Shown piece by piece: positions 4,683 through 55,281 of a stretch of 64,000 nt of DNA. The stretch is from Xanthobacteraceae bacterium (lineage in GTDB: Bacteria; Pseudomonadota; Alphaproteobacteria; Rhizobiales; Xanthobacteraceae). The DNA is taken from assembly GCA_050725855.1 (NCBI GenBank), contig JBOHIU010000214.1:32838-96837 (forward strand). The letters run 5' to 3'. Each line of letters opens with the position of its first letter. Positions within the stretch are counted from its first letter, which is position 1. A program made the position numbers and the translations under genes. The notes under the pieces are model-generated. The model made no database searches and was not told where the DNA came from. It saw only the letters and a program-made list of their open reading frames with translations.

Positions 4683-4842
4683 GTGTGGTGGTTCAGAAGT
4701 CCGCATCATTCCTAAGGCGGGGCTGTTATGCGGACTTCCGAACCGTAGCCACGCGAGATCAATAACTTGCTAGTGTCTCTTCGATTCTGAAGTTCGCAAA
4801 CGAGAGTGCCGCATCATGATGCGATCGGAAGCGGGACACTAG
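4683..4842 (+). repeat. double-hairpin intergenic element, copy 1 (subfamily 1, second hairpin partly decayed)
   Basis: GTGTGGTGGTTCAGAAGTCCGCAT..loop..ATGCGGACTTCCGAACCGTAGCCACGC / linker ATCAATAACTTG / CTAGTGTCTCTTCGATTCTGAAGTTCGCA..loop..TGCGATCGGAAGCGGGACACTAG. Lies 40 nt downstream of the porin stop. Confidence 0.9.
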
Positions 4843-4881
4843 ATCACGTGGCGGATGTCGAAATTATTTTGCTGGTGAAGC

Positions 4882-6282
4882 CTAAAAGGTCACGCTACTG
4901 CGCGCCCCTAGTACCAATGCATTGCGAATCGCAATGGTGGGATCGGCCGGATCGGGCACATTGCCGCCGGGGTGTACGATATATTGCACATCGGGCTGCA
5001 CGGTCCACCATGGCGCGATCTGAATCTGGTAGCTGGCCTCCAGAACCAACTCGTGATCCCGGACGGGATACCACATACCCAGTGCGGCCGCGGTGTCCAT
5101 ATCCAGCGCGGCGGCGTCATTGCTGATGTTGGAAAAGGCCGCGCCGATGGTCAGCACGTCGTTGTCGCGTTTCGGTAGCGGTGCCGTGAAGCCCAAGCCG
5201 CCGTCGATGTAGAACGAAAGTAGATTACGGTCTGCCGGCGCGCCCCCGGCGCGGAGAAACGCATTGATGCTGCTCGGACCGCTTGCCGCCCGCCACGTCG
5301 TCTGATCGATCACGCCGTAGATTCCCCAATCGCCGATGTGCTCTAGGGGTGCTACGATGGCCGAGGAAGCCAGCGACACGGGCAAACCGGCAGCATCGAG
5401 CCCATAATGCTCATCCGCGAAATCCGCCGAATGATACCACGCGCCCAACTTGTACGTGCCGGGCAGCCCTGTGGCGTTCTTGCTCTGAGTGACGTCATAT
5501 TGCAGCTCCGCAATCGAGAACACGCCGCCGCTGAAGCTGAACCGCGTGCCGTAGAGATCGCAGCTCTGGGGATCGCCCGTGCAATTCGAACCGGCGGGGT
5601 TTCCGCTAAACGCAGCGGCCCGCATGGTAACGTCGCTGGATGGCTTAAGCGCGATGCGGATGCCGGGCGTGGCCAGCGGGTAGGCCGGCCCGCCGCTGGG
5701 CAGATTGGCGGCCATCAGATCAGGCCAGCCGAAGGTCCCATCGATCAAACCGGTCGCGGTCTTGCTGATCGCGAATTCATCGTCGGCCGCAAGCTGGCCC
5801 ATCCGCACTGAAACCTTTCCATCGGGCGAAACCTGCTGAAACCAGGCGGTAAAGAGGCGGGTCGTCGGCAAGGCATCGATGTTGCTCGGCTCGCTGATGC
5901 TGCCGACGAAATCGGGTCCTATCCGTCCGCCGATATTATGGATCTGATACACCGTCGTATGAGCGGAAGCTCCCGTCCAACCCAGCAGCTTCTGCAGGTC
6001 GGCGTCGATGGTGAACTCAAAGCGGCCCTCGTAGTCTGCGCCACGATTGATGCCGCCCGTAACGTCGCCCAATATTTCGCTGATGTAGTTGAGCGTGAAA
6101 TCGATTCCCCGCTTCTTCAGCGCAGCGCGTTCGCCACCCCAATCGCCCGTCAACGTATCTTGCTGCCATATGGAATTCGTAGAAGCCGTATTCGTCTGCG
6201 CCTGGGCAATGGATCCCCACGCCGTCGCGAGTGAGGTTGCCAGCGCAGTGAGTGCGACGCGCGATCGGATCGGCAGCGACAT
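4882..6282 (-). CDS. OprB-family (carbohydrate-selective type) outer-membrane porin
   Basis: 466 aa. Signal peptide ending SIAQA. Family-typical LTGDWGGERAALKKRGIDF, IDALPTTRLF, VRMGQLAADDEFAIS. C-terminal F. Confidence 0.85.
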   Translation of the reverse strand: MSLPIRSRVALTALATSLATAWGSIAQAQTNTASTNSIWQQDTLTGDWGGERAALKKRGIDFTLNYISEILGDVTGGINRGADYEGRFEFTIDADLQKLLGWTGASAHTTVYQIHNIGGRIGPDFVGSISEPSNIDALPTTRLFTAWFQQVSPDGKVSVRMGQLAADDEFAISKTATGLIDGTFGWPDLMAANLPSGGPAYPLATPGIRIALKPSSDVTMRAAAFSGNPAGSNCTGDPQSCDLYGTRFSFSGGVFSIAELQYDVTQSKNATGLPGTYKLGAWYHSADFADEHYGLDAAGLPVSLASSAIVAPLEHIGDWGIYGVIDQTTWRAASGPSSINAFLRAGGAPADRNLLSFYIDGGLGFTAPLPKRDNDVLTIGAAFSNISNDAAALDMDTAAALGMWYPVRDHELVLEASYQIQIAPWWTVQPDVQYIVHPGGNVPDPADPTIAIRNALVLGARSSVTF

Positions 6283-6439
6283 CCCGACTTTCCATTTCGC
6301 AACAGGACGACGATCGTTCTTCTAAAAGTCCTTCGCGATTCTTTCTCCCGCAGCGTCCGCCGGCGATGACGAAGAATCGCAAATTGACCATAAGGCGACG
6401 AACACTGAGAAGTCCAGGAAAGACTGAGCGTCCGTTCAA

Positions 6440-6459
6440 AAATGGAATTATTCCAATTC
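6440..6459. promoter_or_regulatory. ICE-like operator, copy 2, upstream of the porin gene
   Basis: AAATGGAATTATTCCAATTC. GGAAT-T-ATTCC is a perfect 5-1-5 palindrome. About 160 nt upstream of the porin start. Confidence 0.6.
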
Positions 6460-6478
6460 ATATCTGCGTCGCAGCTGA

Positions 6479-6493
6479 TTTGAATCATTCGAA
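6479..6493. promoter_or_regulatory. second, weaker ICE-like inverted repeat in the porin upstream region
   Basis: TTTGAA-TCA-TTCGAA, with the same TnGAA-N3-TTCnA half-site geometry as the 20-nt boxes. Confidence 0.3.
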
Positions 6494-6672
6494 TCTTGGA
6501 CCGGATTATTTGTTGCAACCGCGACGTGGCAAAGCTGCGGGAAGATGATGTCACCTGACACCATAAGCTTTGACGGCGGCGAAGATGTCAAAGCTCTTCT
6601 GTAGATCGAAGATTTCGGGCTATTGAGCGGCTCAGAATCATCGGGGCGGCAGGCCACCGCTCTCGCGCTGTA

Positions 6673-8040
6673 CTACGCGGTCTCAAACAGGTCTTGACCG
6701 ATGAAGCGGCCCTGCGCCGCTCCGGGAGGACAGGCAAAGAGGCCGCTGCCGACATGCGTCACGAATTGGTTCATCATGTCGAGCTTGGAAAGCTTGTCGA
6801 ATATTTTGATAAACCCGGTCCGCGGATCGCGCTGATAGGTGATGAAAAGCAAGCCGGCATCGTATTCGAGACCCTGGCGCCACGGCGGCCAGCGCTCGGC
6901 GGTGAAGTCCACGCCGTCGTTATATGAGTACGGCCGCCGCAGCAATTGCGCGCCATTGTTGCTGGCCGGGGCGGCGAGCCGGATATGTGCATGTTCGGGA
7001 ATGATTGGGTTGCCGCTACTGTCTGTGGCGTCGAGGTCAACGGCATCGGATTCGCGCGTCTTACCCAGCGGCGCGCCGGAATATTTGCGTCGACCGATGG
7101 TCTGCTCCTGGAACGCCGTCTTCATTCGGTCCCAATGCTCCAGAGCAATTCGGATCCGCCTGACGGCAAGGTATGTGCCGCCGCGCATCCAAGCCGGTCC
7201 CTCGGCACCGGCCCAGATAGCTTCCTGCATTGCTCGTGGGTCGCTGACGGACGGATTGACCGTTCCATCCTTGAAGCCCATGAGATTGCGCGGGGTCTCG
7301 TCGTCGGCGTAATTGGCGATAAACCCCGCCCGTGCCCAGCGCATTTTGGCAACGTCGGCGCCCAACCGGGCGAGTTGGCGCACCGCGTGGAATGCAACCT
7401 GCTGATCGTCGGCACAGGCTTGAACCGAGAGATCGCCGCCGGTATGCGCTTCCACCAATTGATCACCGACGAACTGAGGCATATCGACCAACGCCGTCGG
7501 TCGGTGCCGGGCGAGACCGTAACGATCCTTGCCATCTTTGGTGAACAATCCGGCCCCGAAACCGAAGGTGATCGTCAGCCGCGATGGCGACAGGCCCAGC
7601 GCCTCGCCGGTGTCGGCGGCAACCCCGGACAGATTCGAAGCCTCATAGCCATCATATGCCCCAGGCTGATCGCCGCCCGCCGCCATGACGGGCTGGAGGT
7701 TTCCGTCCAAGGCTTGCGCCGTTTGGCCTTGCGCCATGCGCGCCGCGGCCGCCGTCCAAGCCTGCAGCAGGTTAGCGACCTCGCGTCGGTCGCCGGTCGT
7801 CAGATCGAATGTGAGAAAGTATGTATGCTTTTGCGCGGGCGTGATGATGCCGCCCTGGTGCTCACCCCAGAACGGCTCGATCTGCGTCGGGCCTTGACGG
7901 TCAGTCGGCGTCTGCGTCTCGGCCTGTGCCTTCGTGGTAGGGACGCCATCCAGACCGGCGCCGGCTGCGACCAGACCGGCCGTCTTTGCGAAGAAGCCAC
8001 GACGCGAAGTGCGCAACGTCTCATCGCCTTTACGGCTCAT
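6673..8040 (-). CDS. efeB: Tat-exported Dyp-type peroxidase / deferrochelatase (EfeB family)
   Basis: 455 aa. Twin-arginine signal TSRRGFFAKTAGLVAAGAG. Dyp motifs MGFKDGTVNP and EHAHIRLAAP. Start overlaps the upstream gene stop (ATGA). Confidence 0.88.
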   Translation of the reverse strand: MSRKGDETLRTSRRGFFAKTAGLVAAGAGLDGVPTTKAQAETQTPTDRQGPTQIEPFWGEHQGGIITPAQKHTYFLTFDLTTGDRREVANLLQAWTAAAARMAQGQTAQALDGNLQPVMAAGGDQPGAYDGYEASNLSGVAADTGEALGLSPSRLTITFGFGAGLFTKDGKDRYGLARHRPTALVDMPQFVGDQLVEAHTGGDLSVQACADDQQVAFHAVRQLARLGADVAKMRWARAGFIANYADDETPRNLMGFKDGTVNPSVSDPRAMQEAIWAGAEGPAWMRGGTYLAVRRIRIALEHWDRMKTAFQEQTIGRRKYSGAPLGKTRESDAVDLDATDSSGNPIIPEHAHIRLAAPASNNGAQLLRRPYSYNDGVDFTAERWPPWRQGLEYDAGLLFITYQRDPRTGFIKIFDKLSKLDMMNQFVTHVGSGLFACPPGAAQGRFIGQDLFETA

Positions 8041-21384: not shown

Positions 21385-21551
21385 CTAGTGTCCCGATTCC
21401 GAAGTTCGCATCATTGTGTGGCCCCCTCGTTTGCGAACTTCGCAATCGAAAGGACACTAGCAAGTTGTCGATCTAGTACGGCTTTGGTTCAGAAGTCCGC
21501 ATAACGAGCCCCGCCGTAAGAATAATGCGGACTTCTGAACCGCCACACTAG
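21385..21551 (-). repeat. double-hairpin intergenic element, copy 2 (subfamily 1, inverted orientation)
   Basis: CTAGTGTCCCGATTCCGAAGTTCGCA..TGCGAACTTCGCAATCGAAAGGACACTAG / CAAGTTGTCGAT / CTAGTACGGCTTTGGTTCAGAAGTCCGCAT..ATGCGGACTTCTGAACCGCCACACTAG. The terminal CTAG contains the acs stop codon. Confidence 0.92.
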
Positions 21552-23497
21552 GCGTTTTCCTTGCTTCGATTCTGCCGGTTCTTGACCAGGTCGTCGACCA
21601 CCGCCGGATCGGCAAGCGTCGACGTGTCGCCGAGATTGCCGGACTCGCCCTCGGCGATCTTGCGCAGAATGCGTCGCATGATTTTGCCCGAGCGGGTCTT
21701 CGGCAGGCTTGGAGCGAACTGGATGAGATCGGGCGAAGCGATCGGACCGATTTCTTTGCGCACCCAGTCGACGAGATCCTTATGCAATTTTTCGCCGGGT
21801 TGTTCGCCCGCCATGAGCGTGACATAGGCGTAGATGCCCTGTCCTTTGATGTCGTGCGGATAACCGACGACGGCGGCTTCGGACACTTTCGGATGCGCCA
21901 CCAGCGCCGATTCGACCTCGGCCGTGCCGAGCCGATGGCCCGCGACGTTGATAACATCATCGACGCGGCCGGTGATCCAGTAATAGCCGTCCTCGTCGCG
22001 GCGGCAGCCGTCGCCGGTGAAATACTTTCCTGGATAAGTGCTGAAATAGGTGTCGATGAAGCGCTGATGGTCACCATAGACGGTGCGCATCTGCCCGGGC
22101 CAAGAATCGGCAAGACAGAGATTGCCGCTGCCGGCACCCTCTTGCACTTTGCCGTCGCCATCGACGATTTGAGGAACAATACCGAAGAACGGTTGGGTCG
22201 CCGAGCCCGGTTTAAGCCGAGTCGCGCCCGGCAGCGGCGTAATCAGGATGCCGCCAGTTTCGGTCTGCCACCAGGTGTCGACGACGGGACATCGGCCATC
22301 GCCAACGACGCGGTGATACCATTCCCACGCTTCCGGATTGATCGGTTCGCCGACGCTGCCCAGAAGCCGCAGTGACGCGCGCGAGGTTTTAGTCACCGGC
22401 GCGTCTCCCGCCTGCATCAGGGCGCGGATCGCGGTCGGCGCGGTGTAGAAGATATTGACTTGGTGCTTGTCGATCACTTCCCAGAAGCGCGACATGCTGG
22501 GGTAGTTCGGCACGCCCTCGAACATCAGCGTGGTGGCGCCGTTGCAGAGCGGACCATAGACGATATAGCTGTGGCCGGTGACCCAGCCGACGTCGGCGGT
22601 GCACCAATAGACATCGCCGTCGTGGTAATCGAAGACGTATTGGTGCGTCATCGACGTAAAGACCAGATAGCCGCCGGTCGTGTGCAACACGCCTTTCGGC
22701 TTTCCGGTCGAGCCAGACGTATAGAGGATGAACAGCGGGTCTTCCGCGTTCATTTCCTCGCACGGACAATCGGCGGTTACGACTTCCTTGGCCTCATGAT
22801 ACCAGACGTCCCGGACCGGATCCATGTCGACCGGCGCGCCGGTCCGCTTGACCACAATGACGAAATCGACGCCGCCGGCTTTTGCGACCGCCGCATCGGT
22901 GTTGGCCTTGAGCGGAATCTTGCGGCCGCCGCGCAGCCCCTCGTCGGCGGTTATGACGACTTTCGACTTGCAGTCTTCGATGCGGCCGGCCAGCGACTCC
23001 GGTGAGAAACCGCCAAACACCACGGAATGAATGGCGCCAATGCGCGCGCAGGCGAGCATGGCGTAAGCCGCCTCCGGGATCATCGGCATATAGATGGTGA
23101 CGCAGTCGCCCTTCTTGACGTTGCGATTGCGCAGGATGTTGGCGAAGCGACAGACCTCGTCATGCAGTTCGCGATAGGTGATTTTCTTTGATTCTTTCGG
23201 GTCGTCGGCTTCCCAGATGATCGCCGTCTGATTACCGCGCAAATGCAGATGGCGATCGATGCAATTATAGGCGGCATTGGTAGCGCCGTCCTCGAACCAT
23301 TTGATCGATACCGGTTTGGCGAAGGAGGTATTCTTGACCTTGCTGAAATGCTTCATCCAGTGGATGCGGTTGGCCTGCTCGGCCCAGAATGCATTTGGCT
23401 CCTTGAGCGAGGCCGCATACATTTGCTGGTACTTGGCGTCATCGACATAGGCGCGCTTTTTCCATTCCGCCGGCACGTCATAAATTTTTTCGCTCAT
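21548..23497 (-). CDS. acs: acetyl-CoA synthetase
   Basis: 649 aa, full-length Acs similarity ([33 protein letters not shown]). Confidence 0.95.
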
Positions 23498-30878: not shown

Positions 30879-31044
30879 CTAGTGGTCCGATTCCAGCATT
30901 CGCATCCGGGCTCGGCAGGCTTTCATGCTGAATGCTGGAGTCGAAGGAGCACTAGCAAGTATAAGGCTCATGGACTTTTTGGGTTTGACATTCGCTTGTC
31001 GAGTTCGCGGTGGGGCAGGTAGCGAATGTCAAATCGCTCCACTA
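30879..31044 (-). repeat. double-hairpin intergenic element, copy 4 (subfamily 2, inverted orientation, diverged stems)
   Basis: CTAGTGGTCCGATTCCAGCATTCGCAT..ATGCTGAATGCTGGAGTCGAAGGAGCACTAG / CAAGTATAAG.. / GGTTTGACATTCGCT..AGCGAATGTCAAATCGCTCCACTA. The terminal CTA is the stop codon of the murU-like gene. Confidence 0.9.
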
Positions 31045-31812
31045 TGCTGTCGTGGCGAGCGCTGCCTCGGCCGCTGCAACAGCTTGCGGTGTGCCGACAT
31101 GCATCCAGACGCCTTCGAGGCGGAGCCCGAACAGCCGTCCGCGTGCCGCGGCACTATCAAACAACAGCGTAAGTGCAAACGGGCTTGCGGGCGCCCCCGC
31201 AAATAGCGTCGGCGACAGGATCGCGGCGCCCGCGTATACGAACGGGACAACCTCGCGCTCGGCGCGCCGTCGCAGCCGGCCATCGGGCTGCATGGCGTAG
31301 TCGCCGCTTCCTTGGTAGCCGATGCTGCCGGCAGTCGGTGCGAGCAAGAGAAGGGCATCCATGTCGCCGGCATCGAAAGCGTCAGCAAGCCGTACAAAAT
31401 TCGGTTTGACGCCATCGAGCCACAGCGTGTCGGAATTGACCAGAAAGAACGGCGCATCGCCCAATCGCGGCAGCGCCCTGGCGATGCCGCCGCCGGTACC
31501 CAGAAGCGCGCCGCGTTCGTCCGAAACGACGATCTGCGGTTCTTTCCGCGACGCCAAATGCAGCTCCAGCGCGTCGGCGAGATAATGAACGTTGACCACG
31601 GCGCGCTCGACGCCGGCTTCGGCGAGCCGATCGAGCGCATAATCGATCAGTGGCTTGCCGCCAACTCGGACGAGCGGTTTGGGGAGCGTGCCGTCATGGG
31701 GCCGCATGCGCGTACCAAGGCCGGCGGCCAACACAATCGCGGATGTCGGCATCGTCGATTGACCCGTCCAGGATAGTGCCCCCATCGTCGCGCCTCGCGT
31801 CACGCCGCCCAT
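31042..31812 (-). CDS. sugar-1-phosphate nucleotidyltransferase (MurU-like N-acetylmuramate-1-P uridylyltransferase)
   Basis: AIVLAAGLGTRMRP motif. Probable start is Met21 at 31752. Conserved position next to the TsaE/kinase gene. Confidence 0.8.
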   Translation of the reverse strand: MGGVTRGATMGALSWTGQSTMPTSAIVLAAGLGTRMRPHDGTLPKPLVRVGGKPLIDYALDRLAEAGVERAVVNVHYLADALELHLASRKEPQIVVSDERGALLGTGGGIARALPRLGDAPFFLVNSDTLWLDGVKPNFVRLADAFDAGDMDALLLLAPTAGSIGYQGSGDYAMQPDGRLRRRAEREVVPFVYAGAAILSPTLFAGAPASPFALTLLFDSAAARGRLFGLRLEGVWMHVGTPQAVAAAEAALATTA

Positions 31813-33367: not shown

Positions 33368-33458
33368 TGCGGCGATCCGCTAAGGTGTTCTCAGAAATCG
33401 CATAGGCTTTCACAACCGAGATTGCGCCTGCGCCAATTCCGGCACAACACCGTCCTAT

Positions 33459-33625
33459 TAGGGGAGCGGATTTGACATTCGCTACCCACCTGGCCGAAAG
33501 CTCCAGTAGCGAATGTCAAATCCAAAGCTCCACAACCACTTATATTTTTCTAGCGGTCCTTTGATTCTAACATTCGCATGATCGAGTGCCGAAATGGAAT
33601 GCGAATGTTAGAATCGGTCCACTAG
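33459..33625 (+). repeat. double-hairpin intergenic element, copy 5 (subfamily 2)
   Basis: TAGGGGAGCGGATTTGACATTCGCTA..TAGCGAATGTCAAATCCAAAGCTCCAC / CACTTATATTTTT / CTAGCGGTCCTTTGATTCTAACATTCGCAT..ATGCGAATGTTAGAATCGGTCCACTAG. The terminal CTAG contains the kinase stop codon. Confidence 0.92.
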
Positions 33626-38234: not shown

Positions 38235-39813
38235 GCAGGATGATCAGCCAAGCCAACAGCGCCGCAATGATCCAGAGTGCCGCGATGGTCCAGCGGCCGC
38301 GCCGCGCCTCGGCTTTGTCGATCTCGGCGATCGTTGCGGGCGATAGCGCGAGGCCGTCGCGGGTTATTTCGTCAAGTTGCTCGAGCACGCGGACTCCGCG
38401 CGCCAACAGGCCCGGTGCGTTGCCGACAAAACGGCCCAACTGAGATGCGCCTTCCGCCGCGCTCTCCAGCTTGCCCGTCGGGCCAAGATGCCGAGCCATC
38501 CATTCGCCGACGACCGGCTCGGCAGTGCTCCACATGTCGAGCTTTGGATCGAGGGAGCGCGCCACGCCCTCGACCACCACCATGGTTTTCTGCAGGAGCA
38601 GAAGTTCGGGCCGTGTGCGCATGTCGAAAATGCCGGTCACTTCAAATAACAGCGTGAGCAGCCGCGCCATCGAAATCTCCTCGGCCGTGCGGCTGTGTAT
38701 CGGCTCGCCGATGGCGCGAATGGCTTGCGCGAACTCATCGACCGAATGGTGGCGCGGCACATAGCCGGCCTCGAAATGGACTTCGGCCACCCGGCGATAA
38801 TCGCGGGTGATGAAGCCATGCAGGATCTCTGCGAGGAACAAGCGTTCCTTCGCACCCAGCCGTCCCATAATGCCGAAGTCGACCGCGATCAGCCTTCCTT
38901 CGTCGTCGGCGAACAGGTTGCCGGGGTGCATATCGGCGTGAAAGAAGCCGTCGCGCAGCGCGTGCCGCAGGAACGTTTGGATCAGCGCGCGGGCGACTTG
39001 ACGCAGATCGAGGCCCTTGGCTTGCAGGTTGGCCCGGTCGGACAAGGCGGTCGCATCGATCCATTCAAGCGTGAGCACGTCCTTACTGGTGCGATCCCAA
39101 TCGACGGCCGGTACTCGAAAATCGGGATCGTTTTTGGTGTTTTCGGCTATCTCCGAGGCTGCTGCCGCCTCCAGGCGGAAATCCATCTCGACCATGACCG
39201 ATCGCCGCAATGTGTCGACGACCTCGATCATCCGCAGCCGTCGGGCCTCGGCTGACAAGTTTTCCGCGTGACGCGCCACATAGGTGAAGGCGCGCAGATC
39301 CGCATGAAAACGCTCTTCAATTCCGGGCCGCAACACCTTGACGGCGACGGCGCGCGGGCCGGCCGCAGTCGCTACCGAGGCGCGGTGCACTTGCGCGATC
39401 GAGGCCGCCGCGACCGGCGGGCCGAAGCTCGCGAACACCTCGCCGGGCGAGCGCCCCAGCGACATGGCAACGACGCGCTCTGCCTCGGCTTGGGCGAACG
39501 GCGGCATGTGATCTTGCAACTGCTCAAGATCGCGGGCGAGCGCCACGCCGACGACATCGGGCCTGGTCGCCAGAAACTGGCCAAGTTTGACGTAGCTTGG
39601 TCCGAGCCGCGTGAGCGCTTTCGACAGCCGCGCCTTCGCGCTACCGCGGCTCGGTCGCTCGACCAGCCGGGCGAGCCGCAGTCCGATGCGCGCCGGCACC
39701 GGCAGCATTGCCGGCTCGACAAGTCCAAAAACGCCTTCGCGCGCGAAAACAAATCCGGCGCGGCCGATTCGCAGGAGATTCGCAGGGCCGGAGATCACAA
39801 GCGCCAGCCGCAA
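38227..39813 (-). CDS. ubiB: ubiquinone biosynthesis ABC1/UbiB-family kinase-like protein
   Basis: 528 aa with ABC1 domain motifs ([24 protein letters not shown]) and C-terminal TM helices. Confidence 0.92.
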
Positions 39814-40553
39814 TGCAGCGCCACGATTCCGCCGCTCATCAGCTTGTGCGTGACGCGACCAAAGCCGGCCGCACGCAGCATGGCGGCGAAATCCTGCGGC
39901 GTCGGAAAACGGCGGATCGATTCTACCAGGTAGCGATACGCGTCGGCATCGCCGGCAACGACGCGGCCCAGCGAAGGGATGACCTTGAACGAGTAGAAGT
40001 CATAGAGACGATCAAGGCCCGGTATGTCGACGGCGGAGAATTCGAGGCAAACGAACTTGCCTCCAATCTTGAGAACGCGAAACGCCTCGGCGAGTCCGGC
40101 CTCGATGCGCGCCACGTTGCGGATACCGAAGGCAATGGTCGCGGCATCGAAGCTGCGATCGGCAAACGGCAGCGACTCGGCGTTGGCTTCGGTGAAGCTT
40201 ATCGCCTCGCCAAGCCGGCGCGTGGCGGCACGTTCACGGCCGACCGTCAGCATGTCGGCGTTGATATCGCAGACCGTTGCGCGCGCCTGCAGGCCGCCCG
40301 CCTCGATCACGCGGAACGCCACATCGCCCGTGCCGCCGGCGATATCGAGTAGCGCGAACGGGCTATTCTTCGGCGGATCGAGAGCTGTGATCAGCGCATC
40401 CTTCCAGGCACGATGCAGCCCGAACGACATCAGATCGTTCATCAGGTCATAGCGGCGCGCGACGCTGCGGAAAACGCCGTCGACCAGTGCCTGCTTGTCG
40501 TCAAGCGGCACTTTGCGCGAACCGAAATGGGTCTCATTCATCGCCGATCTCAC
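39795..40553 (-). CDS. ubiE: demethylmenaquinone/ubiquinone C-methyltransferase
   Basis: 252 aa. [27 protein letters not shown]. 19-nt overlap with ubiB. Confidence 0.93.
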
Positions 40554-40627: not shown

Positions 40628-40796
40628 CTAGTGGAGCGGATTTGACATTCGCTATCCACCCAGCCGAGAAGTTCCAGTAGCGAATGTCAAATCCAAAGCT
40701 CCACTAGCACTTATATTTGCTAGTGGCCCCTTTGATTCTAACATTCGCATGTGAGGGTGCCGAAATGGGATGCGAATGTTAGAATCGGGCCACTAG
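40628..40796 (+). repeat. double-hairpin intergenic element, copy 6 (subfamily 2, best-preserved copy)
   Basis: CTAGTGGAGCGGATTTGACATTCGCTA..TAGCGAATGTCAAATCCAAAGCTCCACTAG / CACTTATATTTG / CTAGTGGCCCCTTTGATTCTAACATTCGCAT..ATGCGAATGTTAGAATCGGGCCACTAG. Both inner stems are 17 bp and perfect. Ends 2 nt before the mutM ATG. Confidence 0.95.
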
Positions 40797-40798: not shown

Positions 40799-41692
40799 AT
40801 GCCCGAACTGCCCGAAGTCGAAACCGTGCGCCGCGGGCTCGAGCCCGCCATGGAGGGTGCCCGCTTCACCAAGGTGGAGGTGCGCCGTGGCGATCTGCGC
40901 TGGCCGCTGCCCAAGGATTTCAAGGCGCAGCTCGAGGGTAAGACGGTCACCGGCATGGGCCGTCGGGCCAAATATTTGCTCGCCGACCTGTCCTCGGGCG
41001 AGGTTCTGCTCATGCATCTCGGCATGTCGGGTTCTTTTTATGTGTTCGATGAAAAAGCCCACGCAGCCAAAGGCGAAACGCCGGGCCTCTATTATCATCA
41101 GCGCGCCCAGCATATCGCCCACGACCATGTGGTTTTTCATATGTCGTCGGGCATGGTCGTGACTTTCAACGATCCGCGCCGCTTCGGTTCGATGAAGGTC
41201 GTGCCGCGCCAACAGCTCGACACTGAGCCGCTCCTCAATCGGCTCGGCCCGGAGCCGCTCGGCAACGAATTCGATGCGACCATGTTGGCGTGCGCCTGCG
41301 CGGGCAAGAAGACAAGCCTCAAGGCGGCGCTGCTGGACCAGCGTGTCGTTGCCGGGCTCGGCAACATCTATGTTTGCGAGGCGCTGCATCGCGCTCACCT
41401 GTCTCCCAAGCGAACGGCTTCCACCATCGCCAGCCGAAACAGGGCGCCGAACGAACGCGCTGAACGCCTTGTTGATGGCATCAAGGCCGTGCTCAACCAG
41501 GCCATCAAGGACGGCGGCTCGACACTCCGCAATCACCGGCTCACCGATGGCGATCTCGGCATGTTCCAGACCCATTTCCGCGTCTACGATCGGGAAGGCC
41601 GGAAATGTCCGGCACCGGGCTGTGGCGGTACCGTCAAGCGTATCGTGCAGAGCGGACGATCAACGTTCTATTGCCCGACATGCCAGAAGTGA
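40799..41692 (+). CDS. mutM: formamidopyrimidine-DNA glycosylase
   Basis: Starts [15 protein letters not shown]-terminal zinc finger [27 protein letters not shown]. The ORF-track start 40751 lies inside the repeat. Confidence 0.93.
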
Positions 41693-41714
41693 ATTTAAGC
41701 GAACGGGAACACGA

Positions 41715-44884: not shown

Positions 44885-45535
44885 TCACCTCGCCTGCCCG
44901 TGATAGACGCTGTTCGGCCGCATGTCGGTCGCGGACGCCACGCGGTTGGTCATGTTGAAGAAGCCGGCCACCGCGGCGATGTCCCAGATGTCGCGGTCGG
45001 AGAAGCCGGCGCGACGCAGCGCGGCATGGTCGTCCTCCTCGGCCAGCCACGGCTCGGCGGTGAGCTTGACGGCGAAATCGAGCATGGCGCGTTGGCGCTT
45101 CGATAACCGGGCGGCGCGGTAATTCATCGCCATCAGCTCGCCAAGCACCGGATCGCTGGAAAGCGCTCGCACCCCCGCGCCGTGGGCGACGAGACAGTAA
45201 TAGCAGCGGTTCTGCGCCGACACCACGACCGCGATCATCTCCCGCTCGAGCCTGCTCAAGCCGGACGGCGCCAGCATCAAATCGTTATACATGGCGACAA
45301 AAGCGGAAAGCTTGGCCATGTCGAACGCGTAGGCCTTGAGCACGTTTGGAACGAAGCCGAGCTTTTCCTCGCACTTGGCGAAATAGGCGGCCATGTCGGC
45401 CGACAGCGGTGCCGGCGGAAGCGACAACGCGGTGATCGTGGTGTCATCGCCGGCTGCGGCGCCGGGCCGCGTGTTCCCACCACTTGCAGCCGAAGTGATT
45501 TTGCTGTTTCGCTTCTTGCTGTTGCGCTTGGCCAT
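44885..45535 (-). CDS. peroxidase-related carboxymuconolactone-decarboxylase (AhpD-like) family protein
   Basis: 216 aa. GFVPNVLKAYAF, NRCYYCLVAHG. Lys/Ser-rich N-terminal tail. Confidence 0.8.
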   Translation of the reverse strand: MAKRNSKKRNSKITSAASGGNTRPGAAAGDDTTITALSLPPAPLSADMAAYFAKCEEKLGFVPNVLKAYAFDMAKLSAFVAMYNDLMLAPSGLSRLEREMIAVVVSAQNRCYYCLVAHGAGVRALSSDPVLGELMAMNYRAARLSKRQRAMLDFAVKLTAEPWLAEEDDHAALRRAGFSDRDIWDIAAVAGFFNMTNRVASATDMRPNSVYHGQAR

Positions 45536-45671
45536 GTCGGCTCCCTGTGTCTTGTCGTGCCGCGGTCGGCGATGCTCGCCGTCGAGCCATTATAAGTCCC
45601 GCTATGGCGGAAGGGGCGCGTCGCTAAAGCTATCTGCAGGGGTTCGGGGCCACCGATGCGGAAGGGCGCCC

Positions 45672-48600
45672 ATGCAAGATGAGTCTCGTATTGACGATGA
45701 GGCCGCTGGCCGGTCCCTGATCGATGCCGCGGTCGCGGTGATTGCACGCCGCAATCTGGGTGTTCCGGCAGAGTTTCTGGCTGAGCTTTTTGGCCGGGCA
45801 CTGCCCGAGGACCTGCAACGTTATAATCCCGATGGGTTGGCGGAGATCGCCGCGAGTTCTTGGACCTTTTTTGCTCATCGGGCTCCGGGCGCGCCAAAGA
45901 TTTTCCTATCGCCTCCGCCTCCGAGCCGTGGCGTGACCATTCTCGATATCGTCAACGATGACATGCCGTTTCTGGTCGACTCCGTCGCCGGCGAACTGCA
46001 CGAACGCGCGCTCGAGATCTCGCTCCTGGTGCATCCGATGTTCTCGGTCCAGCGCGACAGCGGCGGAAACCTCGTTCGTTTCGCGGCGGTGGAGCAGAAT
46101 GACGGCCAACGCGAGAGCTTCATTCACATCCATATCGGCGGCTTGCAGGACGCGGCTGAGCGCGCGGACCTTGTTCGCGCGCTCGAAGATATTCTCGCCG
46201 AGGTGCGCGTCAGTGTGCAGGACTGGGAGCCGATGCTGGCGCGGGCGCGTGAGGTCATCGCGGATTTGCGTCAGAATCCGCCGCCGCTGCCGGCCGAGGA
46301 TATCGCCGAAGCGGTGCAGTTCCTCGAATGGCTGACCAACGACAACTTCACTCTGCTGGGTGCCCGCGACTACGCCTACACGGACAGTGAGCACCCGCTG
46401 CAGCCTGTTTTTGCGACCGGCCTCGGGCTGTTGCGCTCGCGCGACATGCGGCTTCTAAAGCGCGGCGACCAGCTCCTGACCATGACGCCCGAAATCCGCG
46501 AGTTTCTCAACGAGCCGCGGCTGCTCATCCTTGCCAAGACGGCGGTGCGCTCGCGCGTCCATCGGCGCGTCTATCTGGATTACGTCGGCATCAAGCGCTT
46601 CGACGCCGATGGCAGGCTTGTCGCTGAACGTCGGTTTTGCGGCCTATTCACCTCGACCGCCTACACGCGCTCGACTCGCGCCATTCCGTATCTGCGGCGC
46701 AAGGTCGATGGCGTGATCCGGCGCGCCGGATTTGCGCCCAACAGTCACTCCGGCAAGGCTCTGGTCAACGTGCTGGAGACCTATCCGCGCGACGAGTTGT
46801 TTCAGATCGACGAGGACACGCTCTATCAGTTCGCGCTTGCCATCTTGCAGCTCGATCAACGTCCGCGCGTGCGCGTGCTGCCGCGGCCGGACCGCTTCGG
46901 CCGTTTTGTGTCGGTTCTGGTCTACGTTCCGCGCGATCGTTACGACAGCGAGATCAGGGCGAAAATCGGCGCGTATCTCGCCGAGGTCTTCAAAGGCCGG
47001 CTGCGCGCCTTTTATCCGTTTTTCCCCGAAGGGCCGCTGGTGCGCGTCTATTTCATCATCGGGCGCTACGAGGGCGAAACGCCGAGTCCCGATCGCCACA
47101 TGGTCGAGCGTGCCGTCGAAGAGATCGTGCGCAACTGGGTGGATCGGCTCTATGACTCGCTTGGCGCCGGGGCCGACCCGGCGAAGAGCCGGATGCTGTT
47201 CGCCCGCTATCGTGAAGCATTCCCGGTCGATTACCGCGAGGTCTACCCACCCTCGGCGGCCGTCGTCGACCTTGGGGTGATCGAGGCGTTGACGCCGAAG
47301 CGTTCGCTTGGCGTCACGTTCTATCGCGAGTCCGATAAGGAACCAAGCCGCGCGGGACTGAAAGTCCTCAGTCACGAGAGACCCATCCCGCTGTCGGTAC
47401 GGGTGCCGGTGCTGGAAGACATGGGTTTTCGCGTCGTCGATGAACGCACCTACCACATTCGACCGCAGGACGGCGCTGACGTCTGGTTCCATGACATGGT
47501 GCTCGAAAGCGCGTCAGGTCGGGACTTCGATCTCGCGGTGCTCAAAGGCCGGCTGGAAGCGTGCTTTCTCGTCGTCATGGGCAAAAGGGCGGAGAGCGAC
47601 GGCTACAACGCTCTTGTGCTCGCGATCGGGATGATGTGGCGCGACGTGGCGCTGATCCGCGCCATATCCCGTTTCCTGCGCCAGATTCGAGTTCCCTATT
47701 CGCAAGATTATATGTGGGCCACGCTGCGCAAACACGCCGGCATCGCCGGCCAAATCGTGGCTCTGTTTCACGTCCGGTTCGATCCGCATCTCGGAGTTTC
47801 GGACAACGAACGGCGCGCGCACGAGTCCGCGATTGTATCTGCGATCGAGCAGGCTTTGCAGGCAGTCGACAGTCTGGATGAGGATCGCATTCTTCGCCAC
47901 TTCGTCAATGCCGTGGAAGCTGCCGTCCGCACCAATTTCTATCAGCTCGACGGCAACGGCGGCGTGAAGGACCTTATCGCCATTAAGTTTGCGAGCCGCA
48001 AAGTCGACGGAGTCCCATTGCCGCGGCCGCTTTATGAAATCTTTGTCTATTCGCCGCGAGTCGAGGCCGTGCATATGCGCTTCGGCAAGGTGGCGCGCGG
48101 CGGCATTCGTTGGTCCGACCGGCCGCAGGATTTCCGCACCGAGATTCTCGGCTTGGCCAAGGCGCAGAACGTCAAGAATGCCGTGATTGTGCCGGTCGGC
48201 GCCAAGGGCGGTTTCGTGCCGAAGTATCTGCCGATCGGGGGGCCGCGCGAGTCGATCCAGGCCGAAGGCATCGCTACCTACAAAATGTTTATCTCGACGT
48301 TGCTGGACGTTACCGACAACATCGGGACGGGAACGGCCGGCGTGATCCCGCCGTCCGACGTCGTGCGCCACGACGGCGACGATCCCTATCTCGTAGTTGC
48401 CGCCGATAAGGGCACCGCGACCTTTTCCGATATCGCCAATGAGCTTGCCATCGCGCACGATTATTGGCTCGGCGACGCCTTCGCGTCAGGCGGTTCGGCG
48501 GGGTACGACCACAAGAAAATCGGCATCACCGCGCGCGGCGCATGGGAATCGGTCAAACGCCATTTCCGCGAAATGGACGTCAATATTCACGCGATTCCGT

Positions 48601-50483
48601 TCACGGCGGCCGGCGTTGGCGACATGTCGGGTGACGTGTTCGGCAATGGCATGTTGCGTGGGAAGACCATCAAGCTTGTCGCCGCTTTCGACCATCGCGA
48701 CATCTTCATCGACCCGAATCCCGATCCAGAGCGCACATTCGGCGAACGGCGGCGGCTGTTCGATCTGCCGCGATCGAGCTGGCAGGATTTCGACAAGACC
48801 TTGATTTCCGAAGGAGGCGGCGTCTATCCGCGCAACGCCAAGGAAGTCCATCTGTCCGCGCAGGCGCAAACATTGTTCGGCGTCGGAGAGCGCCTCACCG
48901 CGCAGGAGCTTATTCGCGCCATCCTCAAAGCCCCGGTTGACCTCCTGTTCTTCGGCGGCATCGGCACCTATGTGCGCGCCGCCGACGAGACCGACGAGTC
49001 GGTCGGAGACCGCGGCAACGATGCCGTCCGCGTCGCAGCGAAGGATTTGCGTTGCAAGGTGATCGGCGAAGGCGCCAACCTTGGCATGACGCAACGCGGG
49101 CGCATCGAGGCGGCTTTCCACGGCCTTCGTCTCAATACTGATGCGATCGACAACTCGGCCGGCGTGAACACCTCCGACCTGGAGGTCAATATCAAGATCG
49201 CGCTGTCGATTCCGCTGCGCGATGGCCGTCTCGCCATGGCGGGCCGCAACGCGCTTCTCGCCGCGATGACGGATGACGTCGCGAACCTGGTGTTGCGCAA
49301 CAATTATCTGCAGACGCTGGCTCTGTCGCTGTCGGAGCGGCGCGGGATGGAGGATTTCGGATTTCTGCAGCGATTGATGCAAACGCTGGAAGCGCATCGC
49401 TTGCTCGACCGCGCGGTGGAGTATCTGCCGGACGATATTGTATTGACCGAGCGCCGCCGCCGTTCGCTTCCCTTCACGCGCCCCGAGCTGTCGGTACTGC
49501 TCGCCTACGCCAAGCTGTCACTTTACGACGACCTTTTGGAATCGCCGGTTCCGGACGATCCGTATCTGGCGCGCGAAATGGCGCGTTATTTTCCCAAGCC
49601 GACCGCCGAGCGTTTTCCGGATGCTCTCGATCACCACAGGCTGCGCCGCGAAATTGTTGCCACCCAGCTCGGCAACTCGATGATCAATCGCGGCGGTCCT
49701 TCGTTGGTCGTGCGCATCGCCGACCAGACCGGTGCCAAGCCTGCAGCCATTGCGTTGGCGTTCATCGTCGTGCGGGACACCTACGGGATGACCGCGCTCA
49801 ATGCCGCCATCGACGAACTCGACAACCGTGTCGCCGGCAAGGTTCAGCTCGATCTTTACGCCTCGGTGCAGGATCTTCTGCTCGACCGCATTGTTTGGTT
49901 TTTGCGCAATGTCGATCTTTCCAAGGGTCTTGCGGACGTGGTCAGCCATTACCGCGATGGGATCGCAACGATCGCGGCGTGTCTCGACAATACCCTTTCA
50001 GAGGATGGATTGCGTATACGCGCGGCGCGCAGGAGGGATATTGCTGGCCGTGGAGTTCCCGACGCGCTTGCCGGCCGCATCGCCGATATCGGGGCGCTCA
50101 GGGCCGCGCCGGACATCGTTCTCGTCTCCGATCGAACCAGCAAGCCAGTAAGCGACGTCGCGGCAATCTTTTTCGCCGCGGCGGCATTCTTCCGTCTCGA
50201 TCGCATTGTCGGGGCTGCTGCCACCATTCCGGTTAGCGATTACTTCGACCGGCTGGCACTCGATCGTGCGCGGGATGCCATTGGCGACGCCGAGCGGCGC
50301 ATCGCCGTTGCGATTGTTGGAACTGGCGCGGTTGGCGACAAGGCTGTTGAGGCTTGGGCAACGCCGCGCAAAGCGGAAGTGGAACGCATCCGTGGCGCGG
50401 TTGCCGAGATTGCGACCTCGGGGTTGACGCTTTCGAAGCTCACGGTGGCCGCCAGTTTGCTTGGTGACCTGGCAAAAAACTGA
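45672..50483 (+). CDS. gdhB: large NAD-specific glutamate dehydrogenase (about 1600-aa class)
   Basis: Start at internal ATG 45672 (MQDESRIDDE), 1603 aa. Catalytic core VHMRFGKVARGGIRWSDRPQDFRTEILGLAKAQNVKNAVIVPVGAKGGF. Confidence 0.92.
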   Translation: MQDESRIDDEAAGRSLIDAAVAVIARRNLGVPAEFLAELFGRALPEDLQRYNPDGLAEIAASSWTFFAHRAPGAPKIFLSPPPPSRGVTILDIVNDDMPFLVDSVAGELHERALEISLLVHPMFSVQRDSGGNLVRFAAVEQNDGQRESFIHIHIGGLQDAAERADLVRALEDILAEVRVSVQDWEPMLARAREVIADLRQNPPPLPAEDIAEAVQFLEWLTNDNFTLLGARDYAYTDSEHPLQPVFATGLGLLRSRDMRLLKRGDQLLTMTPEIREFLNEPRLLILAKTAVRSRVHRRVYLDYVGIKRFDADGRLVAERRFCGLFTSTAYTRSTRAIPYLRRKVDGVIRRAGFAPNSHSGKALVNVLETYPRDELFQIDEDTLYQFALAILQLDQRPRVRVLPRPDRFGRFVSVLVYVPRDRYDSEIRAKIGAYLAEVFKGRLRAFYPFFPEGPLVRVYFIIGRYEGETPSPDRHMVERAVEEIVRNWVDRLYDSLGAGADPAKSRMLFARYREAFPVDYREVYPPSAAVVDLGVIEALTPKRSLGVTFYRESDKEPSRAGLKVLSHERPIPLSVRVPVLEDMGFRVVDERTYHIRPQDGADVWFHDMVLESASGRDFDLAVLKGRLEACFLVVMGKRAESDGYNALVLAIGMMWRDVALIRAISRFLRQIRVPYSQDYMWATLRKHAGIAGQIVALFHVRFDPHLGVSDNERRAHESAIVSAIEQALQAVDSLDEDRILRHFVNAVEAAVRTNFYQLDGNGGVKDLIAIKFASRKVDGVPLPRPLYEIFVYSPRVEAVHMRFGKVARGGIRWSDRPQDFRTEILGLAKAQNVKNAVIVPVGAKGGFVPKYLPIGGPRESIQAEGIATYKMFISTLLDVTDNIGTGTAGVIPPSDVVRHDGDDPYLVVAADKGTATFSDIANELAIAHDYWLGDAFASGGSAGYDHKKIGITARGAWESVKRHFREMDVNIHAIPFTAAGVGDMSGDVFGNGMLRGKTIKLVAAFDHRDIFIDPNPDPERTFGERRRLFDLPRSSWQDFDKTLISEGGGVYPRNAKEVHLSAQAQTLFGVGERLTAQELIRAILKAPVDLLFFGGIGTYVRAADETDESVGDRGNDAVRVAAKDLRCKVIGEGANLGMTQRGRIEAAFHGLRLNTDAIDNSAGVNTSDLEVNIKIALSIPLRDGRLAMAGRNALLAAMTDDVANLVLRNNYLQTLALSLSERRGMEDFGFLQRLMQTLEAHRLLDRAVEYLPDDIVLTERRRRSLPFTRPELSVLLAYAKLSLYDDLLESPVPDDPYLAREMARYFPKPTAERFPDALDHHRLRREIVATQLGNSMINRGGPSLVVRIADQTGAKPAAIALAFIVVRDTYGMTALNAAIDELDNRVAGKVQLDLYASVQDLLLDRIVWFLRNVDLSKGLADVVSHYRDGIATIAACLDNTLSEDGLRIRAARRRDIAGRGVPDALAGRIADIGALRAAPDIVLVSDRTSKPVSDVAAIFFAAAAFFRLDRIVGAAATIPVSDYFDRLALDRARDAIGDAERRIAVAIVGTGAVGDKAVEAWATPRKAEVERIRGAVAEIATSGLTLSKLTVAASLLGDLAKN

Positions 50484-50642: not shown

Positions 50643-50780
50643 GAGCGCAAAGTAAGCGCATGATACGCAGATGCAATGCGGATCACGCGTTAGTGTTATC
50701 GGCTGCGTCAAACCGCCCGAATTTCCGGGCCAAGTTCCAGCTCTTTTCAAGTCCCGCCGGAAGCCTCTCGCTCACCGCAA

Positions 50781-53241: not shown

Positions 53242-53414
53242 CGATGATCCCCGCCCGGCTTGCTGCGGTGCAGCACTGTCGTGATGATCTGTCATATCAT
53301 CATCATAAAAGCAATTTCTTCCTTGATGGTTAGGTATGAGATGGAGCGGTTCCACGCCAGTCGCAGTGCACATAACCGGCATTCGGCGGTCCGGAACTCA
53401 AGGCGGGCTCAGGT

Positions 53415-54263
53415 CTATTCGCCCGTTTGCATCAGCGAGCCGTGGCGCCGCGCGCTGCGCAACAGCGCCAGGAATCCAAGGACGCCCGCGGCGAAAAGTA
53501 TCACGTTCAGCCCGAGAGCATCGAGCATGAGGTCGGGGCGGAACAGCTTTTGGATGAGCAGCTCCCGCATGCCTTCAAATACGTAGGTCGGGGGCAGCGC
53601 CCAGGCGACGGGCTGCAGCCAGACCGGCAGCGTCGACACGGGGTAATAGACGCAGGTCAAGGGCATGAACAGGAACATGATCGACCAGGCGAAATTCTCG
53701 GCACCCATGCCGTTGCGCAGGATGAGGCCCGAGACAAAGATGCCGATCGCCCACGACGTCAGCATCAAATTGAAAAAGAATGCCACCAGGGCGAGACCGA
53801 GTGCGTAAAGATTGAAGCCGAAGAAGGCGATGGCGAGAAACGTCACCGGCACGAGACCGATCGACAACCGCACCAAGCTCATCACCATCAGTGCGCCGAT
53901 AAACTCGGCCGGCCGCAGCGGGCTCATCATCAAGTTGCCGAGATTGCGCGACCACATTTCCTCGAGAAACGAGATCGAATACCCTAGCTGGCCGCGGAAC
54001 AAAATGTCCCAGAGCAGTACGGCGCCGATAAACGTGCCGCCTGCGCGCGCAAAGAAGCCGGCATTATGCGAGATATAATATTGCAGAAATCCCCAGGTGA
54101 GCATCTGCACCGTGGGCCAGTATATGAGATCGAGAAGCCGCGGCCATGACGACCGCAGCAGGTACCAGTAGCGCAGCATCATCGCGGCGACACGGCGAAG
54201 GGAGAACGATCTCCCTCTCGTTTCTCTTTCGTGTGCCGGGAACGGCGACGCGAGCGCGTTCAT
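53415..54263 (-). CDS. ABC-2 type exporter permease
   Basis: 282 aa, six hydrophobic segments. 4-nt overlap with the upstream ATPase gene. Confidence 0.85.
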   Translation of the reverse strand: MNALASPFPAHERETRGRSFSLRRVAAMMLRYWYLLRSSWPRLLDLIYWPTVQMLTWGFLQYYISHNAGFFARAGGTFIGAVLLWDILFRGQLGYSISFLEEMWSRNLGNLMMSPLRPAEFIGALMVMSLVRLSIGLVPVTFLAIAFFGFNLYALGLALVAFFFNLMLTSWAIGIFVSGLILRNGMGAENFAWSIMFLFMPLTCVYYPVSTLPVWLQPVAWALPPTYVFEGMRELLIQKLFRPDLMLDALGLNVILFAAGVLGFLALLRSARRHGSLMQTGE

Positions 54264-55015
54264 TGCGCGGCCTCGCGTTCGATGCCGCCGCCGCGGGCGA
54301 CATCGAGAAACACCTCTTCGAGCGTGCGCCGGCCATAGCGCGCGAGCAATTTCCCCGGCGTGTCGTCATCTTCGATGCGGCCGCGCTTCATGATGATGAC
54401 CCGATCGCACAGCCGTTCGACCTCGGCCATGTTGTGCGATGCCAGCAGGACCGTGGCGCGGCGCTCACGGCAATAACGCGCGAGATGGCCGCGTACCCAG
54501 TCGGCGGTGTCGGGATCGAGCGAGGCCGTGGGTTCATCGAGCAAGAGCACATCCGGATTATTGATCAGCGCCTTGGCAAGCGACACGCGCGTCTTCTGGC
54601 CGGCTGAAAGCCGGCCGGTCGGCCGATCGAGAAAGTCGGTCAGATCCAGATCGCGGCCAAGCTGAGCGATGCGTTTCTTCAGATCGCCCACCCCATAAAG
54701 CATACCGAACACCGTCATGTTCTGCCGCACGGTGAGCCGCATCGGGACCTCGACATACGGGCTTTCAAAGTTCATGCGATGAAGTACGCGATAGCGCTGC
54801 TTCGGCATTTCGGCCCCGAGCACGGTCACCCGTCCCGAAGTCGGCGTCACCAGCCCCATGATCGAGGCGATCGTCGTGGTTTTGCCGGCGCCATTGCCGC
54901 CGAGAAGACCGGTGATCGAACCCGGCGCGAGGGTGAACGAGATGCCATCGACGGCCGGAACGGTCTTGTAAATTTTGACCAGCCGCTCGACGGCTATGGG
55001 AGGTGCGGCGGGCAT
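54260..55015 (-). CDS. ABC-2 type exporter ATP-binding protein
   Basis: Start at Met45 (MPAAPPIAVERLVKIYK). GGNGAGKTT, LSAGQKTRVSLAKAL, LLLDEPTASLD. The ORF-track N-terminal extension runs into repeat copy 3. Confidence 0.88.
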   Translation of the reverse strand: MPAAPPIAVERLVKIYKTVPAVDGISFTLAPGSITGLLGGNGAGKTTTIASIMGLVTPTSGRVTVLGAEMPKQRYRVLHRMNFESPYVEVPMRLTVRQNMTVFGMLYGVGDLKKRIAQLGRDLDLTDFLDRPTGRLSAGQKTRVSLAKALINNPDVLLLDEPTASLDPDTADWVRGHLARYCRERRATVLLASHNMAEVERLCDRVIIMKRGRIEDDDTPGKLLARYGRRTLEEVFLDVARGGGIEREAAQ

Positions 55016-55120
55016 GCCGGGCAGATGTGGCGCGCGCGGTCGGCAGAGGCAAGAGGCGAATGCCAGACACGACGACAGAGTGTATGGAAGAGGGCTCTGG
55101 AAGATGGCACAAGGCATCTC

Positions 55121-55281
55121 GTGTGGCGGTTCAGAAATCCGCATCATTCTTGCCGCACTCCATTATGCGGATTTCTGAACCAAAGCCACACTAAATCAAT
55201 AAGTTGCTAGTGTCCCTCGATTCCGAAGTTCGCAAACACGGGTGTCGCAGAATGATGCGAACTTCGGAATCGGGACGCTGG
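55121..55281 (+). repeat. double-hairpin intergenic element, copy 3 (subfamily 1)
   Basis: GTGTGGCGGTTCAGAAATCCGCAT..ATGCGGATTTCTGAACCAAAGCCACAC / TAAATCAATAAGTTG / CTAGTGTCCCTCGATTCCGAAGTTCGCA..TGCGAACTTCGGAATCGGGACGCTGG. Confidence 0.92.

Follow-up and report, generated by a model that had tools for sequence, protein, structure and literature searches.

An ordinary miniature inverted-repeat transposable element (MITE) consists of two terminal repeats with unrelated filler between them. Bacterial examples include the Correia elements of Neisseria and the RUP elements of Streptococcus pneumoniae, MITEs of ∼100–150 bp that duplicate a TA target, lie between genes, and are co-transcribed with their neighbours. 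Two large palindromes make up RIME1 and RIME2 (Rhizobium-specific intergenic mosaic elements), intergenic repeats of the Rhizobiaceae that were reportedly described by Østerås and colleagues in 1995. Insertion sequences (ISs) of the IS630 family move by cut-and-paste into the dinucleotide TA, which is duplicated in the process (Feng & Colloms 2007, PMC2170065), with a preference for TA within CTAG (Tenzen & Ohtsubo 1991, as cited in Feng & Colloms 2007, PMC2170065). Here we analyze a 64-kb stretch of DNA (∼62% G+C; hereafter ‘the window’) from a Xanthobacteraceae bacterium, in which a ∼165-bp doublet of hairpins occurs six times (copies A–F). Each copy is very probably a MITE that belongs to the IS630/Tc1-mariner superfamily and has an unusual structure, here called a ‘double foldback’: the elements are inserted at TA and bounded by a repeat of it, carry IS630-like ends, are small, non-coding and multi-copy, and vary in presence and absence between genomes.

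An initial annotation, made without database searches, had reported six double-hairpin copies in the window. Direct reading of the intervals found all six, with offsets of 1–5 nt, and each hairpin folds as had been described, into an outer stem (6–10 bp), a one-sided bulge (3–4 nt), an inner stem (16–17 bp), and a loop (19–23 nt). The whole element, 163–170 bp in length, is laid out as two hairpins of ∼75 nt each with a 12-nt AT-rich linker between them; of the 12–26-nt linkers first proposed, the 12-nt AT-rich form stands, whereas the ‘26-nt linker’ proved to be a decayed module in copy C. The elements are non-coding, and the short peptides in their open reading frames (ORFs) are read-throughs, as already recognized. 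We term the hairpin with a 3′ AAA bulge module 1 and that with a 5′ YTT(Y) bulge module 2, so that the bulge sets the direction of the element, with the order module 1–linker–module 2 read as +. By this convention copies A, D, E and F lie on the + strand and B and C on the − strand, which bears out the earlier report of both orientations. Intact hairpins are delimited by CTAGTG...CACTAG in every case. The arms that we treat as the working ends are the outermost, bulge-less ones, of 22–24 nt (in subfamily I, GTGTCCCGATTCCGAAGTTCGC at one end and GTGTGGCGGTTCAGAAGTCCGC at the other); ∼20 nt inward of each end the same repeat recurs, inverted and with a 3–4-nt insertion, so that each end forms a ∼75-nt foldback.

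The copies fall into two subfamilies that can be aligned end to end, linker included. In subfamily I (A, B and F) the module 1 arm is GGTTCAGAAGTCCGC and the module 2 arm GATTCCGAAGTTCGC, and in subfamily II (C, D and E) these are GGATTTGACATTCGC and GATTCTAACATTCGC, respectively; identity of the aligned segments is 79–94% (D/E 90–94%, A/B/F pairs 82–88%, C versus D 79%). Copy A (4680..4842, +) comprises module 1 (4680–4757), linker ATCAATAACTTG (4758–4769) and module 2 (4770–4842), and is partly decayed, with CAAG for CTAG at its left end and a 3-nt deletion in the 3′ arm of module 2. Copy B (21385..21551, −), which carries CTAG at both outer ends, reads on the + strand as module 2 (21385–21460), linker CAAGTTGTCGAT (21461–21472) and module 1 (21473–21551). 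Copy F (55118..55281, +), with module 1 at 55118–55194, linker ATCAATAAGTTG at 55195–55206 and module 2 at 55207–55281, has outer ends that have decayed to CTCG and CTGG. Within subfamily II, copy C (30879..31045, −; on the + strand module 2 at 30879–30955 and module 1 at ∼30967–31045) is the most diverged, the inner outer-stem of its module 1 having decayed, while copy D (33458..33625, +) comprises module 1 (33458–33536), linker CACTTATATTTTT (33537–33549) and module 2 (33550–33625), its left end having decayed to TTAGGG. The most intact is copy E (40628..40796, +), in which module 1 (40628–40707), linker CACTTATATTTG (40708–40719) and module 2 (40720–40796) are arranged with CTAG at all four module boundaries.

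These structures stand well clear of chance. Five instances of CTAGTG-N50-80-CACTAG are present in the window, whereas 100 dinucleotide-preserving shuffles yielded none, and a degenerate arm consensus gave 23 matches against 6.2 expected, with all of the good ones inside the six copies; the same consensus search revealed no seventh copy in the window. Folded as single-stranded DNA, the hairpins reach −22 to −27 kcal/mol, with z-scores of −7.1 to −10.4 relative to shuffled sequences.

That the elements have inserted into pre-existing DNA is seen directly by comparison with related genomes, in which the orthologous regions were located through TsaE/AmgK and Acs homologues. At sites C and D, four relatives (TsaE identity 81–85%) have short intergenic regions with no element; site E is empty in two (L001 and L002), and site B in two closer relatives (L129 and L130; Acs identity 91–92%). 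With the element in square brackets, site C changes from gYgTAGAATCTGCTA when empty to gcaTAG[TGGAGC...GGACCAC]TAGAATCTGCTA when filled; site B from gcaTAGcac or gcgTAGtcc to gccTAG[TGTGGCGG...GGGACAC]TAGgat; site E from GCATCG-CTCGAT to GCATCG-CTAG[...]CTAGAT; and site D from gccTAGc... (in the four relatives) to gccTAG[TGGACC..., the far end being decayed. A direct repeat of TA thus bounds the doublet, extending to TAG or CTAG where the adjoining bases match, and in both subfamilies it is the whole doublet, not a single hairpin, that is the inserted unit. Some 89 kb of sequence from six relatives (loci L001, L002, L003 and L127–L129) contains no hairpin module, and a seventh relative (L130; GCA_030044555.1, Xanthobacteraceae genome JOPF206) has one module, at 643–722, upstream of acs, a position at which the window carries no element; the family is therefore mobile and has expanded specifically in the lineage of the window. 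Neighbouring sites are polymorphic in both directions, since L130 lacks copy B and yet carries a module of its own nearby.

Judged by their sequence, the hairpin arms are IS630-family terminal inverted repeats (TIRs). One arm, flanked by TA, terminates a 974-bp element whose transposase gene is frameshifted (L033), another ends a 736-bp internally deleted element flanked by CTAG...CTAG (L063), and a truncated third example has an arm at the end of a transposase gene (L053). The ends of L033 and L063 are identical to the arms at 20–21 of 22 nt, and the L033 protein scores 226.8 bits on the NCBIfam model transpos_IS630 (cut-off 100), with additional matches to the Pfam domains DDE_3 and HTH_32. 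Independent cases are provided by annotated, intact IS630-family elements on plasmids (L124–L126; 1152–1209 bp), which were chosen by protein similarity only and are all flanked cTA...TAg. The left repeat of L126, ATGTCCCGAGTCACAAGTTCGC, agrees with the module 2 outer arm at 18 of 22 positions, its right repeat, GTGTGGTGGACCAGAAGTTCG, with the module 1 outer arm at 17 of 21, and the right repeat of L124 with the module 2 arm at 18 of 22. In at least one IS, then, the difference between left and right repeats parallels that between module 2 and module 1. Full internal copies of the repeats, like those of the doublet, were absent from the full-length ISs examined. By eye, part of the left repeat of L063 recurs in inverted form (GCGAGACTTCGCGGGTC) 24–60 nt in from that end, shortly before the transposase start; this partial copy could be a precursor of the MITE foldback or a device that sequesters read-through transcripts.

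The initial annotation had inferred a family of elements, and a scan of one representative genome per species with the arm pattern CTAGTGNNNCGRWTYNRAMRTYCGC, which returned at least 120 loci, shows that it extends beyond the six copies. Among the matches listed, 114 of 134 arm matches have an inverted partner 20–27 nt downstream. A profile built from the modules and run on the window plus those loci recovered at least 249 non-overlapping hairpins, arranged as at least 100 doublets, 38 singles, one triplet and two quadruplets; on inspection of the matches listed, most singles are doublets whose partner hairpin is truncated or comes from a divergent lineage. Of 100 doublets among the matches listed, 96 have the bulge-less arms on the outside. 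The role of these arms as the working ends is supported by three further arrangements: single hairpins of 72 bp that consist only of the module 2 outer arm and the module 1 outer arm (L019, L059); a tandem pair of doublets in L052 (3428–3752) that overlap by exactly one CTAG, as expected if one doublet entered the TA flanking the other; and, in a Vicinamibacterales genome, a MITE of classical build, 208 bp long, that carries these repeats (L007, ∼272–479 in + strand coordinates). A second tandem pair of doublets lies in L011 (6516–6895).

The family is widespread in Alphaproteobacteria. Cultured carriers include Afipia massiliensis, Bradyrhizobium spp., Caulobacter ginsengisoli, Mesorhizobium sp. 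and Paramagnetospirillum marisnigri, and many metagenome-assembled genomes of Xanthobacteraceae, Hyphomicrobiaceae, Rhizomicrobium, Caulobacteraceae and Rhodospirillales also carry it. The same IS630-type repeats were encountered outside this class in L007, in L053 (Haliangiales), and as a full doublet in L041 (‘Bordetella’), which suggests either horizontal spread of the IS/MITE lineage or contigs assigned to the wrong genomes. A blastn search of 72,556 plasmids returned 12 weak matches for the subfamily II copy, none of them in Sinorhizobium, whose records are numerous, and none at all for the subfamily I copy.

The prevalence of CTAG at the boundaries raises the question of the target. CTAG stands at 149 of 178 doublet ends (84%) among the matches listed, although the search demanded it at one or more ends per doublet, and ∼two thirds of the other ends are also CTAG. 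Elements of the IS5 family target YTAR, so that a MITE of this family, a possibility raised initially, would duplicate a 4-bp CTAG, and a putative unrelated IS inserted at CTAG inside the loop of one element (L090) could be counted in its favour. Nevertheless, site C has aTAG on the left and its empty counterparts have gTAG, which leaves the C outside the repeat; no element was seen with an IS5-type transposase and these ends, as against five IS630 elements that have them. With arms that match IS630 terminal repeats and an insertion that duplicates TA(G), an IS5-family origin is extremely unlikely. In L090, at ∼7827 on the reverse strand, a subfamily II hairpin is split at the CTAG of its own loop by unrelated DNA that, by eye, starts with a transposase-like N-terminus (…GSLFSYVDLE…), possibly that of an IS of IS5/IS1182 type; if so, element loops can serve as CTAG targets.

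The same ends bear on a second proposal, in which the hairpins would be repetitive extragenic palindromic (REP) elements or their doublets (REPINs), spread by a REP-associated tyrosine transposase (RAYT), an IS200/IS605-like HUH enzyme acting on hairpins in single-stranded DNA. The element is indeed intergenic and highly repeated, with hairpins strongly conserved through compensatory changes, and GTAG/CGTC REP families are known together with Y1 transposases in Bradyrhizobium and Rhodopseudomonas (PMC3733652). Its arms, however, are 22–24 nt long, non-palindromic and begin with CTAGTG, and bear no GTAG or CGTC tag; its ends match IS630 terminal repeats, the TA(G) repeat at TA/CTAG is the signature of that family, and transposase remnants adjoining the arms are of IS630 type only (no RAYT profile scan was made). 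We regard the probability of RAYT-mediated spread as close to negligible. The description ‘MITE/REPIN-like’ in the initial annotation can accordingly be kept for a non-autonomous mobile family, a MITE, and dropped for REPIN and RAYT, given the IS630 ends and the TA(G) duplication.

Pairing within the hairpins is exceptionally well maintained. In an alignment of 88 doublets, RNAalifold predicted 40 pairs, 29 of which show changes on both sides with pairing kept, and in a separate count 97% of cells were paired; per-column conservation is ∼90% in the arms and ∼50% in the loops, with the linker in between. One arm position, GA[A/C], is concerted across both hairpins, which do not pair with each other (C/C in 28 of 28, A/A in 60 of 60), although this concert reflects one deep subfamily split and thus gives no statistical proof. 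It is nevertheless suggestive of recognition by a common protein, presumably the transposase, as intramolecular pairing would not require it; the arms being transposon inverted repeats, both must fit the same protein.

Such stable, covarying stems could by themselves suggest a structured RNA or DNA motif kept by the host, whether as a bidirectional transcript end, an mRNA-stabilizing pair of hairpins or a protein-binding site, and either independent of transposition or derived from a domesticated MITE. Four of the six copies in the window lie directly 3′ of a gene, and in the wider set of matches listed 46 of 163 element ends coincide with the terminal TAG of an open frame of at least 150 codons, compared with 21 and 26 in two control frames. 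Small RNAs are known from other Bradyrhizobium REP elements in 3′ untranslated regions (Hahn et al. 2016, PMC5082802), which also counts in favour of a host function. Against it, the elements are absent from orthologous sites of close relatives and are therefore not needed by the genes concerned; they are found in either orientation, and copies E and F lie between divergent genes, in 5′ regions directly upstream of start codons; they have neither a T-run nor a short loop, nor a match in Rfam. The gene-end abutment at stop codons is accounted for by the TA/CTAG target, and the concerted change in non-pairing arms points to recognition by a protein. Target preference for TA/CTAG, combined with purifying selection on disruptive insertions, explains the distribution, and no host function needs to be invoked. 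A motif maintained by the host is, in our view, very unlikely.

Several specific identities were also examined. Rfam contains no match to any part of the window at gathering score, and at E≤1 copy E gave only chance-level matches to microRNA models and copy B none. An intrinsic (Rho-independent) terminator was rejected, as the loops are 19–23 nt long, no T-run follows, and a scan found no terminator-like site around copies B and E; together with the position of E and F upstream of starts, this tells against the transcript-end role first envisaged. No stretch of the window matches Br-REP1 (CCGGAATCTCGAGATTCCGG) with three or fewer mismatches, and the Br-REP2 core has no convincing match there. 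A published name or printed arm sequence for the family was not found in the searchable literature, in keeping with the initial annotation, which had matched it to no named repeat family, and the literature likewise yielded nothing relevant on an IS630 MITE in Bradyrhizobium and relatives.

For an IS630-type MITE, the following course of events can be proposed. An IS630-family DDE transposase, encoded elsewhere in the genome and acting in trans, would bind the outer arms through its N-terminal helix-turn-helix domains, excise the element and paste it into a TA, which would be duplicated. With G as its first base and C as its last, an element that entered C-TA-G would restore CTAG on both sides, and where the target is a TAG stop codon the stop would be restored as well; such insertions would therefore be nearly neutral. 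Targets would be scarce in a 62% G+C genome and would be offered by TAG stops and by DNA between genes; this would account for the tendency of the copies to lie between genes and close to gene ends. Effects on transcripts, such as RNA hairpins at 3′ ends or in the mutM 5′ region, are possible by-products rather than the element's raison d'être. The elements appear to be a new, unnamed member of the IS630-type MITEs with an apparently ordinary mechanism, and only two points set them apart: the four-TIR ‘double foldback’ layout and the strict complementarity of the arms.

Some observations sit less comfortably with this interpretation. A 2-bp duplication of TA and a 3–4-bp duplication of TAG or CTAG are inseparable by sequence alone. 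The ends of L033 and L063 were retrieved with a pattern built from the arms and so carry an ascertainment bias, while the plasmid-borne ISs, which are free of that bias, are less close to the arms. Among matches lacking a hairpin partner, no full-length IS with subfamily II ends (…ACATTCGC) was found. The initial annotation saw no transposase gene in the window, and tblastn confirmed this for the IS630 type (other transposase families without a systematic screen). Finally, complementarity between the arms is tighter than transposase binding alone obviously needs, and there may be a further constraint at the level of the hairpin, in DNA or RNA, or correction of one arm by the other.

This last point could be taken further, by supposing that the double foldback is no mere by-product of how the MITE arose but is actively kept, with selection acting on the folding of hairpins in single-stranded DNA or RNA, and has been associated with IS630 elements over the long term across Alphaproteobacteria. 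We consider this unlikely. Were it true, the gain might lie in efficient synapsis or excision with four transposase-binding sites, or alternatively in a host-tolerated or useful RNA 3′-end structure that preserves stop codons and works in both directions; a largely vertical pairing with a low-copy IS630 transposase would then be the DDE-transposon analogue of the REPIN–RAYT association.

The surroundings of the individual copies are as follows. Copy A lies 39 nt past the stop of an OprB porin gene (4882–6282, −) and, on its other side, ∼265 nt upstream of a solute-binding-protein gene on the same strand (3338–4417, −). Copy B is flanked by an acetyl-CoA synthetase gene (21548–23497, −) and a YkuD gene, copy C by an NTP-transferase gene (31042–31812, −) and addB, and copy D by a PAS histidine-kinase gene (33622–36261, −) and tsaE/amgK. 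For these three, the TAG stop codon of the adjoining gene coincides with the element's terminal CTA (21548–21550, 31042–31044 and 33622–33624, respectively), so that ‘strictly intergenic’, as the copies had been called, needs qualifying for B, C and D. The encoded proteins have kept their lengths despite the insertions: Acs has 649 amino acids in the window and 640–654 in relatives, and the C-termini of the histidine kinase and the NTP-transferase align with those of the relatives' proteins.

Copy E lies between the divergent genes ubiE (39795–40553, −) and mutM (ATG at 40799, +), and copy F between a divergent ABC ATPase gene (54260–∼55117, −) and an HbpS-like gene (55308–55781, +). Only 2 nt separate the end of copy E from the mutM (Fpg) start codon. 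The 5′ region native to mutM, an intergenic stretch of 80–95 nt that it shares with ubiE in relatives, has thereby been displaced by 169 bp, and expression of mutM must now start within the element or pass through it; a single sigma-70-like site is predicted inside module 2 of copy E, on the strand opposite to mutM (40763–40735). The largest ORF in the window, of 1696 amino acids, is located at 45393–50483 (+).

Elements of this kind matter for annotation in the first place, as stretches of ∼165 bp that cause spurious ORF calls and whose apparent covariation could pass them off as small-RNA genes. They also call for caution in RNA-motif discovery: in the inverted repeats of a DNA transposon, pairing can reach 97% and ‘compensatory’ changes can number in the dozens even when no RNA function is involved. 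Being widespread in soil Alphaproteobacteria (Bradyrhizobium, Afipia, Hyphomicrobiaceae, Caulobacter, Rhizomicrobium) and variable between close relatives, they have potential as strain markers, and they offer a system for asking how IS630 transposases handle four-repeat substrates and why TAG stops are favoured. The current understanding of transposition is left unchanged.

Among known systems, the doublet shares with the Correia and RUP elements its approximate size, TA duplication and intergenic position; the hosts and sequences are unrelated, and one pair of terminal repeats there contrasts with four repeats in two hairpins here. The two-palindrome architecture reported for RIME1 and RIME2 resembles the doublet. 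Like REPINs and REP-based bacterial interspersed mosaic elements (BIMEs), the elements are intergenic, abundant hairpin doublets of inverted units whose arm complementarity is kept across lineages; unlike REPINs, they lack a GTAG/CGTC-tagged short palindrome and instead combine TA duplication with DDE-transposon ends. Br-REP1 and Br-REP2 of B. japonicum USDA 110 (PMC5082802) are likewise intergenic, palindromic and near gene 3′ ends, with a short GATTCCGG-like motif, but differ in sequence and are palindromes of 20–40 nt for which no structure of repeats and target duplication was reported (PMC5082802). The closest agreement is with ISs of the IS630 family (IS630 and ISY100; Tc1/mariner), which also insert at TA with a preference for CTAG, duplicate the TA, and have terminal repeats of ∼22–24 nt with GTG right after the TA, identical to the arms at 17–21 of 21–22 nt (L033, L063, L124, L126). 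Like MITEs derived from IS630, the elements are small, non-coding, multi-copy and polymorphic between genomes; unlike an ordinary MITE, each of their repeats is backed by an internal inverted copy, giving four repeats and two independent hairpins joined by a conserved 12-nt linker.

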